Program-made: the position numbers and the translations under genes
DNA from: Escherichia coli
Lineage (GTDB): Bacteria > Pseudomonadota > Gammaproteobacteria > Enterobacterales > Enterobacteriaceae
Strand: one strand, 5' to 3'
NCBI RefSeq assembly: GCF_003334255.1
Contig: NZ_QOWU01000057.1
DNA length: 33,649 nt
Notes under the pieces: generated by a model
Databases searched by the model: none
The model's input: the letters and a program-made list of their open reading frames with translations, nothing else
What the model was told of the DNA's origin: nothing
In this document: positions 6,980 through 23,166 of the stretch, in pieces
How the letters are laid out: each line of letters opens with the position of its first letter
Numbering within the stretch: the first letter of the stretch is position 1

Positions 6980-7939
6980 TTATGCCATCGACGCGTAAAG
7001 GTTTTTAATGGTTTCCCGTAACCAGACGATCTTCGGATTATGGCTGTTCCGTTTATGCCACAGCAGGGTAAAAGGAACTTCCAGCTTTTTTTGCTGGCTT
7101 TCGTCAAACGGGAGAGGAAGAGCAACCAACGGCAGTTGATGGAGTTGATTGTAGTACTGACAGTAGCGCGGCGCGGTCGCCAGTAGCAGATTGTCGGGTT
7201 GCGCTGCCATAAACAGTGACTGCTCAAATTCCGGCAGGCTCATAGCAATCGTGCGTTCGCGCCCCAGCTCCTGTAACACATTGTCCAGCGCCCAGGTGTC
7301 GCTCTGTTCCCAGCAAATGCTGATATGCGGATAACGTAAAAAGGTGTCCAGATTCCACGTTTCATGCAGTGCCGGATGATCTTTGCGTAACCAGACGCAG
7401 GGTACATCACTAAACAGCACTTCATAATCAATGGCTAACGGTAGCGAGCTTAACAGCTCCCGCGAGCGAGGATGGCTTTCGCGACCGGAAAAACCAATAT
7501 CCACTTCACCACGAGTAATGGCATCTAAGGAATCGTAATCCCAGTTACGTAGTTTGATGGTCGCCTGCGGGTAACGTTGGTAGATCCGTTTCGACAGCGC
7601 ATTAAGCATGATCATCATCAGCGGCGATTCCGCCGCCAACTCAAACTTCAGGCCGCGCGGTGTCTGGTGGTGCGGTTTATCCAGCAGCAGATTGCTCATT
7701 TGCATCCATTCCGCCAGATTTTGCTCCATGCTGACCATTAGCGGTGTGGGCGACAGCCCCAGCGGTGAGTTCACAAAGAGCGGGTCGTCAAACCACGCTC
7801 TTAACTTTGCCAGCGACTTACTCACCGCTGAAGGGGTCACGTTCATCCGCTTCGCCGCTTTGGTCACGCTGCGCTCCTGCATCAGCAGTTGCAGACAGAG
7901 CAGCAGATTGAGATCAAGCGTGGTGATGGATTTCTTCAT
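6980..7939 (-). CDS. yidZ: YidZ, LysR-family transcriptional regulator (319 aa)
   Basis: ORF trimmed to ATG at 7939 ([43 protein letters not shown]… = LysR-type HTH); overlaps mdtL 3' end by 26 nt. Confidence 0.85.
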
Positions 7940-9089
7940 GAGCGGCAACGGGGCGTCCAGGCGCGACGAACATAATCAGCAACAGGCTCACTATGCTACA
8001 GGCAATCAGAATCCCGATCAGCATATTCCATGCGCCGATACCAACCACCGCTGCCAGCCAAATCCACAGTGACGAACCGCAAACCTGCGCAATACCTAAG
8101 GTCGAGCTGGCTACGCCCGCGCGTAATGAAAACGGCCCTAACGCCTGACTCATCGCCACACCAAAACCTACCGAGAAACCGGCGCAAATCAGCGTGATAC
8201 CAAACAGAGAAACCGCATGGGAAGGTGAAACGGCAAGAGTGATCCCCGCCGCCAGGAATAACACCTGCGAGGTGATCATCAACGTACGTGGCTTAAAAAT
8301 TCCCAGCGCAAATGGCGTGGAGAATGAAACGGTCATGCTGACGCCAGCGGTCAGCGCCATAATGGTGGCGTATTCACCGCGCTCAAACCCCATGATTTCC
8401 ATCAGCAATACCGGTGACGTGTTGACGAAAGTGAGGATCACCGAAACGCTGAGGGTGGTGATAACAACACGGCTGAGGAAAAAACGGTTAAGCAGCGACT
8501 CGCTATTTTCTCGTGGTTTATCCGAAGCTGCGGGGGCCGCTGGGCGCGTTTCTTTTAAAATAAACAAAGACAACATCAGTACCGCGATGCCCATCATTGC
8601 CATCGCCCAGAACAGACTCTGCCACGGGAATTTAAGCATAATCAGATGTCCGAGCACTGGCGCTAACACCGGAATGATGCAGGTAATACCGTTGAGTAAT
8701 GACAGCACTTTAGCCCGACGTCGATCATCCAGCGTGTCGCGCAAAATAGCGAACGCCACTACGTAACAACAGCCTGCGCCCAACCCCTGTAGAAATCGGC
8801 CTGCAAGAAATAACGTGCTGGTTTCAGCCAGTGAACAGAACACCGAGGCAATAATAAATAGCGCCGCGCCGGGTATGGCGACCGGCTTTCTCCCTGAACG
8901 ATCGGCCACTTTACCGGCAAATAACATCGCAGCTGCCATCCCCGCCAGATATACGGAGAACGCAATATGCAACTGCGCTTCGCTGGCATTGAGATCGGCG
9001 GCGATGCGCGGTAAACCAACGAGGTACATATCAATCCCGGCGGGATAAAGTAAAACCAGGGCAAAACTACAAATCAAAAAGCGGGACAT
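7914..9089 (-). CDS. mdtL: MdtL, major-facilitator-superfamily multidrug efflux transporter (391 aa)
   Basis: 391-aa polytopic membrane ORF, ATG at 9089; K-12 synteny downstream of tnaB. Confidence 0.9.
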
Positions 9090-9185
9090 GGGCTAAAGCG
9101 TCCTGATAGTAAGGTGACGCAAAGCATACGTGGTGAAGGAGGATCAGGCGAGTTGCCATTTGGACATAAGTGATTTCCTGAGAGG

Positions 9186-9214
9186 CAAGAAGCCAGCGAA
9201 TGGCTGGCTTCTTG
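9186..9214 (-). terminator. Strong hairpin immediately downstream of the tnaB stop; candidate tna operon terminator (no U-tract)
   Basis: Perfect 12-bp stem CAAGAAGCCAGC / GCTGGCTTCTTG with 5-nt loop, 7 nt after the tnaB stop; no T-run on either strand. Confidence 0.45.
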
Positions 9215-9220
9215 AAGGAT

Positions 9221-10468
9221 TTAGCCAAATTTAGGTAACACGTTAAAGACGTTGCCGAACCAGCACAAAATCACGGTTATACCAAAGAGAATGACAATCG
9301 CCGGAATAAGATTGCCGCCCCAGACCGTGAACATCTGATTGGGAAACTTCTTGCGAGCTTTGATTGCAAGCACTGCGGGAATAATGACCGCCCAGATGGT
9401 GGCGCACAGCCCGGCACCGCCGATCCCGTAAATAAAGCCGTTCGGGAAGATCAGATACAACAACGCAGGTGGCAGGAAGGTTAACAGCACGGTTTTGAAA
9501 CGCCCGCCGTGGGAGTTATCAATCTTAAACAGGTCCGCCAGATAATCGAACAACCCCAGCGTGACACCAAAGAACGAACTGGCAACAGCTAAGTTAGAGA
9601 ACACCAGCAGGCAAAACTCGATAATGCCGTGCTGTTTGGTGCCGAGGAACGATTTCACCAGCGAATCAACGTTGCCGCCTGAGGAGATTATCGCCTTAAA
9701 GCTTTCGCGCGGAATATTCCCCATCGTGCAATAGAGCCAGAAGAGATAAATCACCAGCGCCAGCAGCGAACCAAATACCACGCTTTTGATTAACTTATCT
9801 TTGCGTTTTCCATAGCAAATAATCAGGCTGGGAATATTGCCGTGGAAACCAAATGACGCCAGACACACCGGCAAAGCCATAAAGATATACGGGAAGTAAG
9901 ACGTTCCCGCAGTGGTGCTGGTGGCATCGCGCAGGATGGAGTAATCGACCTGGAAGAAGAAAGAACCAAACACGATCACAAAGGAGATAATCTTCAGCCC
10001 GAGGAACAATGAGGTAATGCGACTGGCGGCTAACGAACTTATCCACAATACGCTGGCAACGAAAATGGCTGTGCAGATCCCGACAATACGTGGATTAGCG
10101 TGATAGCCCAAATTCATTGATATCGTTTCACTAATGATCGCACCATTAGCAGAGATATAGGCATAAGTGAGGATATAGAGAACGAAGGCAACGGTAATAC
10201 CGCTGATAATGTTCCAGGTGTTACCGATTAAATCTTTGGTGATGGTGTTAAAACTGGAGCCGACAGGATAATTTAAATTTGCTTCTAATAACAATAACCC
10301 GGAATGAAGCATTGAAAACCAGGCAATGATAAGGATAAAGGCACCCCAGAAAAACCAGGCACCGGCAAGATCAACAGGTAAAGCAAACATACCTCCACCA
10401 ATTACTGTACCTGCTATAACCATAACACCCCAAAATGCAGAGTGCTTTTTTTCAGCTTGATCAGTCAT
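9221..10468 (-). CDS. tnaB: TnaB, low-affinity tryptophan permease (415 aa)
   Basis: 415-aa membrane ORF, ATG at 10468; directly downstream of tnaA. Confidence 0.93.
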   Translation of the reverse strand: MTDQAEKKHSAFWGVMVIAGTVIGGGMFALPVDLAGAWFFWGAFILIIAWFSMLHSGLLLLEANLNYPVGSSFNTITKDLIGNTWNIISGITVAFVLYILTYAYISANGAIISETISMNLGYHANPRIVGICTAIFVASVLWISSLAASRITSLFLGLKIISFVIVFGSFFFQVDYSILRDATSTTAGTSYFPYIFMALPVCLASFGFHGNIPSLIICYGKRKDKLIKSVVFGSLLALVIYLFWLYCTMGNIPRESFKAIISSGGNVDSLVKSFLGTKQHGIIEFCLLVFSNLAVASSFFGVTLGLFDYLADLFKIDNSHGGRFKTVLLTFLPPALLYLIFPNGFIYGIGGAGLCATIWAVIIPAVLAIKARKKFPNQMFTVWGGNLIPAIVILFGITVILCWFGNVFNVLPKFG

Positions 10469-10558
10469 GATGCCACCTTTAGAGGAAGGCTATTTTTGTT
10501 ATTGAGGATGTAGGGTAAGAGAGTGGCTAACATCCTTATAGCCACTCTGTAGTATTAA

Positions 10559-11974
10559 TTAAACTTCTTTCAGTTTTGCGGTGAAGTGACGCAATACTTT
10601 TGGTTCGTAGGTAAAGGTTAATCCTTTAATATTCGCCGCGTTCTCTTTCACATGTTTAAAGGCTTCAATAATGAAGTCCATATGTGTTTGAGTATATGTT
10701 GCGCGCGGAATGGTTAAACGCAGCAGTTCAGCCGGGCATGGCAGTTGTTTACCGGTTTTCGGATCGCGGCCTAACAGGAAAGAGCCAATTTCTACCGCAC
10801 GGATACCGGCGACTTTATACAGCTCGCACGCCAGCGCCTGTGCCGGGAACTGGTCTGCCGGGATATGCGGCAGCAGTTTACCGGCATCAACGAATGCCGC
10901 GTGACCGCCTGCCTGCTGGCAGACAACGCCAATCTCTTCCAGACCATCGACCAGATACTGTACCTGCGCGATACGATAAGCCAGCCAGTCGAGATTCATG
11001 CCGTCATACAGACCTACCGCCAGACGCTCCATCGCGCCGCCTTCCAGGCCGCCATATGTCGGGAAGCCTTCCTGCACCACGCAAAGGGTTCTGCACTCGG
11101 TGTACACATCAAAGAAGCTGTCGTCTTTCATGCACAGCAGGCCGCCCATCGGCACCATCGCATCTTTCTTGGCGGACATCGCCAGCATATCGGCATATTT
11201 GTAGGTTTCGCGGGTGATCTGCTCGATGGTCCAGTCTTTGTATTCTGCTTCACGCTGCTTGATGAAATAGGCGTTTTCAGCAAAGCGCGCGGAGTCCATT
11301 ACCACCGGAATATCGTATTTCTTCGCGATGCTGTACATCGCTTTTAAGTTTGCCAGTGAAACCGGCTGACCACCTGCAGAGTTACTGGTGATGGTTGCAA
11401 CGATATACGGCACGTTATTCGGACCAACTTCTTCAATACCGCGTTCTAATCCCTCAAGGTCAAAGTTGCCTTTAAAGTCGTAACGCACGCCCGTATCGAA
11501 GGCTTCTTTGATATAGACGTTACGCACGGTACAGCCGTTGATCTGGCTATGGCCCTGCGTGGTATCAAAGAAATAGTTAGAGAACGCCACCATTTTGCTG
11601 CGATCCAGGCCTTTTTCCTGCTCGCGTTTTTTAATCAGTACCGGAATATAGATTTGCTCTGCGCCACGGCCCTGGTGAGTCGGAATGGTGTATTGATAAC
11701 CAAAGATATTTTTCACTGACTCGGCTAACGCATAGTAGCTACGACTGCCGCTGTAAGCTTCGTCGCCGCGCATCATCGCAGCCTGCATGCTCTGCGTCAC
11801 CGCCCCGGTGCCGCTGTCGGTCAGTAAATCGATAAACACATCTTCGCTATCCAGCAGGAACGGGTTCATACCGGATTTAATAATTGCCTCTTCACGATAA
11901 GCGCGAGTGGTACGTTTTACTGGCTCAATAACACGAATGCGGAACGGTTCAGGGAGATGTTTAAAGTTTTCCAT
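10559..11974 (-). CDS. tnaA: TnaA, tryptophanase (tryptophan indole-lyase), PLP-dependent (471 aa)
   Basis: ORF 10559..11989 trimmed to ATG at 11974 ([18 protein letters not shown]…), AAGGAT Shine-Dalgarno upstream; PLP-lysine region [12 protein letters not shown] present. Confidence 0.96.
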
Positions 11975-12194
11975 TACATAATCCTTCATTTATTTTAATT
12001 ACAGTGATCCCTGTGAATATTACATCTGCTATACCGATTAATTCGCCAGATATATATGCAAGCACCATCATTTACTAAAACAAGTAAATAAACGAGAGAT
12101 GACCTTTGCAAAAGGCAAAATTAAGATATAGCAAACAAATAGATCACATTGAATCTAATCGGTTTGGCTCTGGTGATGGCTACAGAAGGGCAAA

Positions 12195-12269
12195 TCAAGG
12201 GCGGTGATCGACAATTTTGTTGTCAATATTGAACCATTTTGAGGTCACACATATATGTAAGATATTCAT
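12195..12269 (-). CDS. tnaC: TnaC (TnaL), 24-residue tryptophanase leader peptide MNILHICVTSKWFNIDNKIVDHRP
   Basis: Reverse complement of 12195..12269 translated by hand gives the 24-aa leader with Trp12 and C-terminal Pro24 followed by TGA; about 220-nt spacer to tnaA. Confidence 0.9.
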   Translation of the reverse strand: MNILHICVTSKWFNIDNKIVDHRP

Positions 12270-12344
12270 AATGCACTTATCCTCGCAAGACACGAGGCTA
12301 CATTATTACACTCAGAGTTTTTGTCTATTCTGAAATTGTTTAAA

Positions 12345-12360
12345 TGTGAATCGAATCACA
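12345..12360. promoter_or_regulatory. cAMP-CRP binding site of the tna promoter (TGTGA-N6-TCACA)
   Basis: Perfect TGTGAatcgaaTCACA palindrome about 80 bp upstream of the tnaC start, consistent with a class I CRP site for catabolite-repressed tna. Confidence 0.65.
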
Positions 12361-12511
12361 ATCGTTCGGGGAGCAATATTAAATGCTTTTTTTAAAGATT
12401 ATAAATTACGTAAGAATTTTAATGTTTAAAAAAAGGGTTGAGGAATAACAGGAGTGGTAACAATGAAGCGAAGCCGCATCTGACAGTCAGAATGCGGCTT
12501 CGTAAGCGCGG

Positions 12512-13876
12512 TTACTTACCAATACAGAAGCTGGAGAAAATCCGCCCCAGCAGGTCGTCTGAAGTAAATTCCCCGGTGATTTCGCTTAAGTTCTGCTGTG
12601 CCAGACGCAACTCTTCCGCCAGCAGTTCACCTGCCCAGGCTCCCAACAGTTGCGCTTTGCCCTGTTGTAGATGTTCCGCTGCCTGTTCCAGCGCCTGTAG
12701 GTGGCGACGACGCGCCAGGAAGCCGCCTTCCATGTTGGTGTCAAAGCCCATGCTCTGTTTGAGATGGTTACGCAGCACGTCCACGCCTTCACCAGTCCTT
12801 GCCGAGAGACGAATTAACGCGTGACCGTTCACTTCACTCATTCCCAGCGTTTCGCCGGTGATATCGGCTTTATTGCGCACCACGGTGATCGGCAGTTTCG
12901 CTGGCAGACGGGCAATAAATTCCGGCCAGATCTCTGCCGGATCCACGGCGTCTGTTGTGGTGCCATCGACCATAAACAGCACGCGGTCGGCCTGTTCAAT
13001 TTCCTGCCACGCGCGCTCGATACCAATACGTTCTACTTCGTCACTGGCTTCACGTAGCCCGGCGGTATCGATGATATGCAGCGGCATTCCGTCAATGTGG
13101 ATATGCTCACGCAGCACGTCACGCGTAGTTCCGGCGATATCGGTTACGATTGCCGCTTCACGCCCCGCCAGCGCGTTTAACAGGCTCGATTTACCGGCGT
13201 TAGGACGTCCGGCAATCACCACTTTCATCCCTTCGCGCAACAAACTACCCTGACGTGCTTCAGCACGCACTGCATCAAGATCGGCAATAACGTCATTGAG
13301 CTGGGCTTCAATTTTTCCGTCGGAGAGGAAATCGATCTCTTCATCGGGGAAATCAATTGCCGCTTCGACGTAAATGCGCAAGTGGGTGAGGGCTTCTACC
13401 AGATGATTAACCCGTGCGGAGAATGCGCCTTGCAGCGAGTTAAGTGCCGAACGGGCCGCCTGTTCCGAACTGGCGTCGATAAGATCGGCAATCGCCTCGG
13501 CCTGGGCTAAGTCAAGTTTATCGTTAAGAAACGCGCGTTCGGAAAACTCACCAGGGCGAGCAATCCGCAGGCCGGGAATGGTCAGAATGCGTTTTAACAG
13601 CAGGTCGAGGATCACCGGACCGCCATGACCTTGCAGTTCCAGCACATCTTCGCCGGTGAACGAGTTCGGGCCAGGGAACCATAGCGCAATCCCCTGATCG
13701 AGCACGCTGCCGTCGGCGTCTTTAAACGGAAGATAATCGGCGTAGCGCGGCTTAGGCAGTTTACCCAGCACGGTTTCGGCAACTTCACGGGCTTTGAAGC
13801 CGGAGATGCGCAGGATGCCAACGCCGCCACGTCCCGGAGGCGTGGCCTGGGCTACGATAGTGTCATTATCGCTCAT
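12512..13876 (-). CDS. mnmE: MnmE (TrmE), tRNA modification GTPase (454 aa)
   Basis: 454-aa ORF, ATG at 13876; G1 motif [12 protein letters not shown]; C-terminal CIGK; K-12 synteny downstream of yidC. Confidence 0.95.
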
Positions 13877-13930: not shown

Positions 13931-13956
13931 AGAAAAAAGGCGGTCAACTGACCGCC
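13931..13956 (-). terminator. Candidate intrinsic terminator or attenuator downstream of yidC (upstream of mnmE)
   Basis: Hairpin GGCGGTCA…TGACCGCC at 13939..13956 with a T-run on the - strand (A-run 13933..13938 on + strand), 26 nt after the yidC stop. Confidence 0.45.
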
Positions 13957-13981
13957 CTTATTTTAGCGAAAACTCACCGAA

Positions 13982-23118: not shown

Positions 23119-23134
23119 AAGAAGCTATAAGAAA

Positions 23135-23166
23135 AGGGCGGAGATCATCTCCGCCCTTTTTATTTC
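23135..23166 (+). terminator. Rho-independent terminator downstream of gyrB
   Basis: Hairpin AGGGCGGAG-atcat-CTCCGCCCT followed by TTTTTATTT; an upstream A-run makes it potentially bidirectional. Confidence 0.65.

Follow-up and report, generated by a model that had tools for sequence, protein, structure and literature searches.

A 12-bp hairpin past tnaB lies at the 3′ end of the tnaCAB transcript and is probably part of a Rho-dependent operon end

The locus analyzed here lies in a stretch of 33,649 nucleotides of Escherichia coli DNA (contig NZ_QOWU01000057.1; hereafter called the window), in which tnaA, tnaB, and mdtL are read in this order from the minus strand (Table 1). In this region, the window has the same sequence as E. 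coli K-12 MG1655, and the MG1655 coordinate is obtained as 3900704 minus the window position. The tnaB gene ends in a UAA stop codon (9223-9221), followed by the 6 nt AUCCUU and by a hairpin of which the first stem base is at 9214; 96 nt separate the stem from the mdtL ATG (9089). In 5424 of the 5426 complete E. coli genomes, 301 bases around the hairpin match annotated tnaB and mdtL. Some E. coli contigs encode predicted TnaB-MdtL fusions of 653 aa (P0016-P0018) that join the Trp/Tyr permease and MFS domains and cover 88% of MdtL, and that would point to natural deletions of the tnaB end, the hairpin, the spacer, and the mdtL start.

Table 1. Features of the tnaA-tnaB-mdtL region, in window coordinates
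Feature	Position	Strand	Details
tnaA	10559-11989	-	ORF; name from RefSeq annotation of identical sequence
tnaB, low-affinity tryptophan permease	9221-10468	-	ORF, translation, RefSeq annotation of identical sequence
Hairpin as transcribed	9186-9214	-	MG1655 3891490-3891518
5′ arm of hairpin	9214-9203	-	CAAGAAGCCAGC
Loop of hairpin	9202-9198	-	CAUUC
3′ arm of hairpin	9197-9186	-	GCUGGCUUCUUG
Steady-state 3′ terminus of the tnaB (tnaCAB) transcript	9176-9187	-	Peak MG1655 3891517-3891528
C-rich, G-poor untranslated stretch, candidate Rho-loading (rut) region	9108-9185	-	C 27, G 11 of 78 nt
Position of top Rho score	9087-9087	-	MG1655 3891617, third base of the mdtL start codon
mdtL	7914-9089	-	ORF and RefSeq annotation

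The hairpin had been described in an original prediction, made from the plus strand, as a perfect 12-bp stem at 9186-9214 that begins 7 nt past the tnaB stop. An inverted-repeat search returned the same element, with two arms of 12 nt (9186-9197 and 9203-9214) that are 100% complementary and 5 nt apart; the sequence agrees with that quoted, and the first stem base is the seventh nucleotide after UAA. Since both neighboring genes are transcribed from the minus strand, the transcribed hairpin is the reverse complement, in which the arms are unchanged and the loop reads CAUUC, not GAAUG. The RNA at the end of tnaB reads UAA-AUCCUU-CAAGAAGCCAGC-CAUUC-GCUGGCUUCUUG, followed by CCUCUC or, with a longer 3′ flank, by CCUCUCAGGAAAUCAC. 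A folding-energy calculation, proposed as a check with the original prediction, gave -20.2 kcal/mol for the hairpin (z = -6.9 relative to dinucleotide shuffles, with 0 of 200 shuffles being equally stable). The whole window was shuffled 300 times with its dinucleotides preserved; perfect 12-bp stems enclosing a loop of 3-10 nt occurred at a mean of only 0.027 per window, and the post-tnaB hairpin is therefore not a chance palindrome. The real window contains two distinct perfect 12-bp hairpins, namely the post-tnaB hairpin and a terminator at 23132-23160. The latter (AAAAGGGCGGAGAU-c-AUCUCCGCCCUUUU, 14 bp, A/U-tracts on both sides) is a textbook bidirectional intrinsic terminator, and the window has no further perfect hairpin of 12 bp or more. 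The covariance models of Rfam 15 gave no match with E up to 1 on either strand of window positions 7800-12800.

According to the original prediction, the hairpin lacks the T-run of an intrinsic terminator. This holds for the sequence past the full stem, where the next 8 nt, CCUCUCAG, contain two U, and a consensus terminator scan (at least five T in eight required) did not call the hairpin; it does not hold for the stem itself, since a degenerate U-tract is hidden inside the 3′ arm. The last bases of this arm, UUCUUG, pair with CAAGAA at the start of the 5′ arm, the U-run being interrupted by a C that is paired to G. When the stem is cut back to its G+C core, GCCAGC/GCUGGC, the tail becomes UUCUUGCC, with four U in eight and a C at the third position. 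The layout is that of an intrinsic terminator with an A-tract paired to a U-tract, except for the broken U-run. The 12-bp stem and the 5-nt loop fall within the range of canonical terminators (G+C-rich, about 5-14 bp, loop of 3-8 nt), whereas the U-tract of about 7-8 nt that should come right after such a stem is missing. We also calculated an approximate d'Aubenton-Carafa score, using modern energies: the post-tnaB hairpin scores 5.6, just above the threshold, compared with 47-58 for the canonical terminators in the same window. Judged by its sequence, the hairpin would be a marginal intrinsic terminator at best.

Published transcript data bear on the position of the RNA end. Supplementary Data 2 of Bar et al. 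2023 (PMC10687069) contains a 3′ terminus classed as "Primary tnaB", with MG1655 3891521 as the dominant position and a signal of 0.914, significant in three term-seq replicates (adjusted p of 3e-91, 5e-61, and 2e-41); the sheet, identified by its header and continuous coordinates, represents TRS applied to the term-seq libraries of Dar and Sorek. In the Northern blots of Singh et al. 2020 (PMC7186457), a 3.1-kb transcript was seen with tnaC, tnaA, and tnaB probes, and a 1.9-kb transcript with tnaC and tnaA probes. Position 3891521 corresponds to window position 9183, that is, 3 nt past the last stem base and 9 nt beyond the G+C core stem GCUGGC, with the RNA ending in ...GCUGGCUUCUUGCCU; this terminus answers the refuting condition of the original prediction, a lack of 3′ ends at the hairpin. 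The two transcript sizes fit ends at 3891521 and, in the tnaA-tnaB spacer, 3890188, if transcription starts about 319 nt upstream of tnaA, which we take to be the length of the leader. The curated Term-seq lists of Adams et al. 2021 (PMC7815308), covering three growth conditions, contain ends at 3888521, 3888703, 3890188, and 3891174 and none at the post-tnaB hairpin; hence, the 3′ end at the hairpin is backed by one dataset and missing from another. The TERMITe supplements contain no entry for tnaB, tnaA, mdtL, or the coordinate, and a literature search on tnaB-mdtL, tnaB terminators, and bicyclomycin found no paper discussing the post-tnaB hairpin specifically.

Termination between tnaB and mdtL is sensitive to inhibition of Rho. 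In Supplementary file 2 of PMC7815308, a Rho termination region is listed with its top position at MG1655 3891617 and a Rho score of 4.19 (p 8e-32), a score of coarse resolution, as it compares 800-nt windows in cells treated with bicyclomycin for 15 min. The DirectRNA-seq reads upstream and downstream in the same table are 381 and 70 for untreated cells and 1297 and 999 with bicyclomycin; the column order was settled by arithmetic on the reads, which reproduces the listed Rho score and matches the described method. From these reads, the downstream-to-upstream ratio rises from 0.18 in untreated cells to 0.77 with Rho inhibited, the latter value being approximate because bicyclomycin de-represses the tna leader (upstream reads go up 3.4-fold) and because activity of an mdtL promoter would inflate the downstream count. 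A ratio this high under bicyclomycin indicates that most termination between tnaB and mdtL needs Rho, in support of the original suggestion that the hairpin is a Rho-assisted element dividing the tna operon from mdtL. The composition of the spacer is in keeping with a Rho-loading site at 9108-9185: the 78 nt past the stem form the window of that size with the highest C-minus-G on the minus strand across tnaCAB-mdtL, and they lie at the 99.5th percentile of C-minus-G for the whole window on both strands. A promoter scan found none on the minus strand within the tnaB-mdtL spacer.

Seven of the 12 stem pairs are invariant within Escherichia. One pair is changed on both sides, from G:C to A:U, in SCPM-O-B-8794, which is named "E. 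coli" and is a separate species-level genome. Three further changes are one-sided; each of them gives a G.U pair in the sense RNA, would leave an A.C mismatch in an antisense transcript, and breaks the DNA dyad; the loop is 5, 6, or 8 nt long. Pairing is thus kept in the sense RNA only, which would argue for selection on the sense RNA; the covariation comes from 10 closely related sequences with one compensatory pair, for which shuffle controls were not decisive, and its statistics are weak, given that homologs of the hairpin are confined to Escherichia. Among complete E. coli genomes, exact matches to the K-12 allele (as a 51-mer) were found in 2404, to a 6-nt-loop allele in 601, and to a G.U allele in 465. 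The allele of SCPM-O-B-8794 (locus L008, 3748-3790) is CAAAAAGCCAGC-GGUCAUUC-GCUGGCUUUUUG, and its compensated change turns the interrupted U-tract into U5, yielding a canonical-looking intrinsic terminator with a score of 33 by the same approximate formula. This U5 allele is absent from the 5426 complete E. coli genomes.

Larger rearrangements were also seen at or near the hairpin. Escherichia whittamii (locus L040, 3755-3935) and Escherichia sp. E1V33 (L038) carry a REP-containing segment of about 130 bp inside the hairpin region, leaving one hairpin copy before it, AAGAAGUCAGC-GGUCAUUC-GCUGGCUU, and another after it, GAAGCCAGC-CAUUUC-GCUGGCUUCUUG; the hairpin appears to have served as an insertion or recombination point in these two genomes. 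In E. coli 22AH104 (L006, 2700-5214), ISEcp1 with blaCTX-M-14 is inserted about 80 nt past the tnaB stop, just beyond the hairpin and the conserved block described below, where the remainder of the spacer and the mdtL start would be. This strain also has a C-to-A change that breaks one stem pair.

A scan for relatives of TnaB yielded 44 loci, and in most of them a stable hairpin follows the stop codon within about 30 nt. Citrobacter, Silvania, and Leclercia share the tnaB-mdtL arrangement and have unrelated, U-poor hairpins at this place, followed by C-rich, G-poor sequence. That the position and structure of the hairpin are kept, and its sequence is not, points to an RNA-structural role at the end of the operon. 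Directly past the hairpin, a block, CAGGAAATCACTTATGTCCAAATGGCAACTCGCC (window 9147-9180, minus strand, continuing to about 9120), is almost invariant in Escherichia, Citrobacter, Silvania, and Leclercia. The block also lies upstream of mdtL in Salmonella, Citrobacter koseri, and Klebsiella pneumoniae, where there is no tna operon and no post-tnaB hairpin. We therefore rejected the idea that the block is part of a tna terminator; it belongs to mdtL, and the hairpin travels with tnaB. The block contains a dyad, which reads ATTTCCT-N3-AGGAAAT in most genera and CTTGCCTCTCAGGAAAT in E. coli, where it overlaps the last hairpin bases, as well as a partial dyad, TTGTCC-AAA-TGGCAA. A conserved TAT(G/T)CT is located about 45 nt before the mdtL ATG. 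This layout looks like a putative operator of the LysR type (perhaps for YidZ) together with an mdtL promoter. In Salmonella enterica and C. koseri (L051 and L052, about 1820-1950), REP-like palindromes, GCCGGATAAGGCG...CATCCGGC, come after mnmE and immediately precede the block; because mnmE adjoins these palindromes and the block where tna is absent, tnaCAB with its terminal hairpin appears to have been inserted between mnmE and the control region of mdtL.

Taking together the data on the hairpin, the mapped 3′ end, the bicyclomycin-sensitive read-through, the composition of the spacer, and the pattern of conservation, we think it probable that the hairpin sets the 3′ end of the tnaCAB mRNA and protects it, that Rho terminates transcription mostly near the mdtL start, and that exonucleases trim the transcript back to the stem. 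In this scheme, RNA polymerase would pass the tnaB stop codon, and the 12-bp stem would fold once the terminating ribosome has departed. A minority of polymerases may stop at the hairpin, since the G+C core GCCAGC/GCUGGC is followed by the degenerate U-tract UUCUUGCCU, and a small share of intrinsic release there is possible. Most polymerases would go on into the 96-nt untranslated, C-rich and G-poor spacer, where Rho would load and free the transcript around the mdtL start. The tail would then be trimmed by 3′-to-5′ exonucleases until these are blocked by the stem, giving the stable end 3 nt past it, and the stem would protect the 3.1-kb operon mRNA. The primary tnaB terminus supports the original suggestion of an mRNA 3′-stabilizing stem as far as the position of the end is concerned; both the trimming at tnaB-mdtL and the stabilizing effect are inferred.

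Since the mapped end, 9 nt past the core, would also be the release point of a weak terminator, its position alone cannot tell trimming from intrinsic release. The hairpin could accordingly be read as a weak but genuine intrinsic terminator, in which the core and a few A:U pairs, with UUCUUGCCU as the U-tract and CAAGAA as the A-tract, cause release at 3891521, and Rho mops up the read-through. The usual release distance of intrinsic terminators covers 9 nt past the core stem, the approximate score is just above the threshold, and the U5 variant of the sister lineage scores 33. Mixed or transitional cases are, moreover, treated explicitly by Dar and Sorek (PMC6061677). We nevertheless regard this reading as unlikely. 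With Rho inhibited, the approximate ratio of 0.77 leaves at most about a quarter of the transcripts to stop without Rho; only half of the eight bases past the core stem are U, with the third being C; the consensus scan made no call at the site; and, going by known ribosome footprints, the 5′ arm would be covered by a ribosome terminating at UAA, which ends 6 nt before the stem.

The remaining readings place the function outside the operon-end structure, and we consider both very improbable. In one of them, which takes up the "protein-bound element" of the original prediction, the palindrome acts as DNA, as the binding site of a dimeric protein such as a regulator of mdtL-yidZ or of the tna operon, and the RNA hairpin is incidental. 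The perfect 29-bp dyad does adjoin the operator-like conserved block upstream of mdtL, and the last hairpin bases (TTG) overlap the left half of the TTCC-N-GGAA dyad of this block. A dimeric site would, however, poorly tolerate the arm spacings of 5, 6, and 8 bp found in Escherichia, and the three one-sided substitutions disrupt DNA symmetry while retaining G.U pairs in the sense RNA; we therefore rejected a DNA operator as the main reading. It is also at odds with the other genera, which retain a hairpin at this position and not its sequence, with the occurrence of the mdtL block without a hairpin where tna is absent, and with a 3′ end that maps to the hairpin. The other reading takes the hairpin for a site of endonucleolytic processing by RNase III or RNase E, or for a dispersed, REP/BIME-like repeat. 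Cleavage could in principle create the mapped 3′ end, and REP elements are indeed found at the corresponding place in Salmonella and C. koseri, as well as in the segment inserted into the hairpin region of E. whittamii. RNase III normally needs roughly two helical turns, and the 12-bp stem is shorter than that. The published RNase III site of the operon is inside tnaA, at 3889207, which together with the short stem led us to reject an RNase III site here. A dispersed repeat was rejected because the element is single copy: queries of 301 nt and of 51 nt found a median of one place per E. coli genome. There is, in addition, no match in Rfam, and the sequence is unlike the REP consensus seen at the E. 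whittamii, Salmonella, and C. koseri loci.

The SCPM-O-B-8794 variant suggests that the element may descend from, or can become, a canonical terminator. A more far-reaching version of this idea is that the element is a decaying or switching terminator, toggled by the compensated pair (UUCUU with G:C in E. coli and E. albertii vs UUUUU with A:U in the sister lineage), and that leakage couples tna and indole to MdtL when Rho is limiting. Coupling of tna transcription, and hence of indole production, to the efflux pump MdtL is conceivable because the E. coli element would let polymerase through when Rho does not act, and the hairpin directly adjoins the conserved upstream control region of mdtL; taken as a whole, we find this idea rather doubtful.

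In practical terms, the element is an ordinary operon end; its class (Dar and Sorek 2018) and the tnaB 3′ end are already contained in genome-wide tables in the literature. Its value lies in annotation: it documents the end of the tnaCAB mRNA and explains why the very strong transcription of the tryptophanase operon does not normally spread into mdtL, which is thereby protected from tna read-through. As a general rule, E. coli mRNAs terminated by Rho have hairpins that resemble those of terminators and lack a U-tract, and the tnaB end illustrates this rule cleanly. The U-interrupted, Rho-dependent allele and the naturally occurring U5 allele are one compensated pair apart, and they make a convenient pair with which to study how readily intrinsic and Rho-dependent ends interconvert.

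Compared with the canonical terminators after yidC (13933-13962) and at 23132-23160, the post-tnaB hairpin has the same arrangement of a G+C core, a short loop, and paired A/U flanks just past a stop codon. It differs from them in its U-tract (UUCUUG vs U6 and U5), in its far lower approximate score, and in that termination is mostly Rho-dependent. A closer relative is found in the tnaA-tnaB spacer, at about 10521-10549 of the window (minus strand), where AGAGUGGCUA-uaaggaugu-UAGCCACUCU forms a hairpin without a U-tract. Its 3′ end is at MG1655 3890188/9 (window 10515-10516), about 4 nt past the stem, and C-rich sequence comes next; this end has 51162 reads in one list of PMC7815308 and a TRS signal of 0.98 (PMC10687069). 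Both hairpins are U-tract-less stem-loops soon after a stop codon, with a mapped 3′ end and C-rich sequence behind them, whereas the tnaA-tnaB hairpin is internal to the operon, has a much stronger 3′-end signal, and has an approximate terminator score of -12. The latter hairpin corresponds to the abundant 1.9-kb tnaC-tnaA transcript, and the ratio of TnaA to TnaB expression is probably determined by it.

The class that the post-tnaB hairpin resembles most was described by Dar and Sorek 2018 (PMC6061677), who found that Rho-dependent transcripts end just past stable stem-loops without U-tracts, and that such ends are made by PNPase and RNase II trimming after diffuse downstream termination, with C enriched over G after the stem. 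Like members of this class, the tnaB stem-loop is directly upstream of a precise 3′ end, has no U-rich tract past the stem, is followed at once by sequence rich in C over G, and shows bicyclomycin-sensitive read-through. The hairpin thus has four of the five defining features, the fifth being exonuclease dependence. Unlike the class, in which A-tracts are atypical (PMC6061677), it has an A-rich arm, CAAGAA, paired to the degenerate U-rich arm UUCUUG, and for this reason the tnaB hairpin looks like a decayed or transitional intrinsic terminator.
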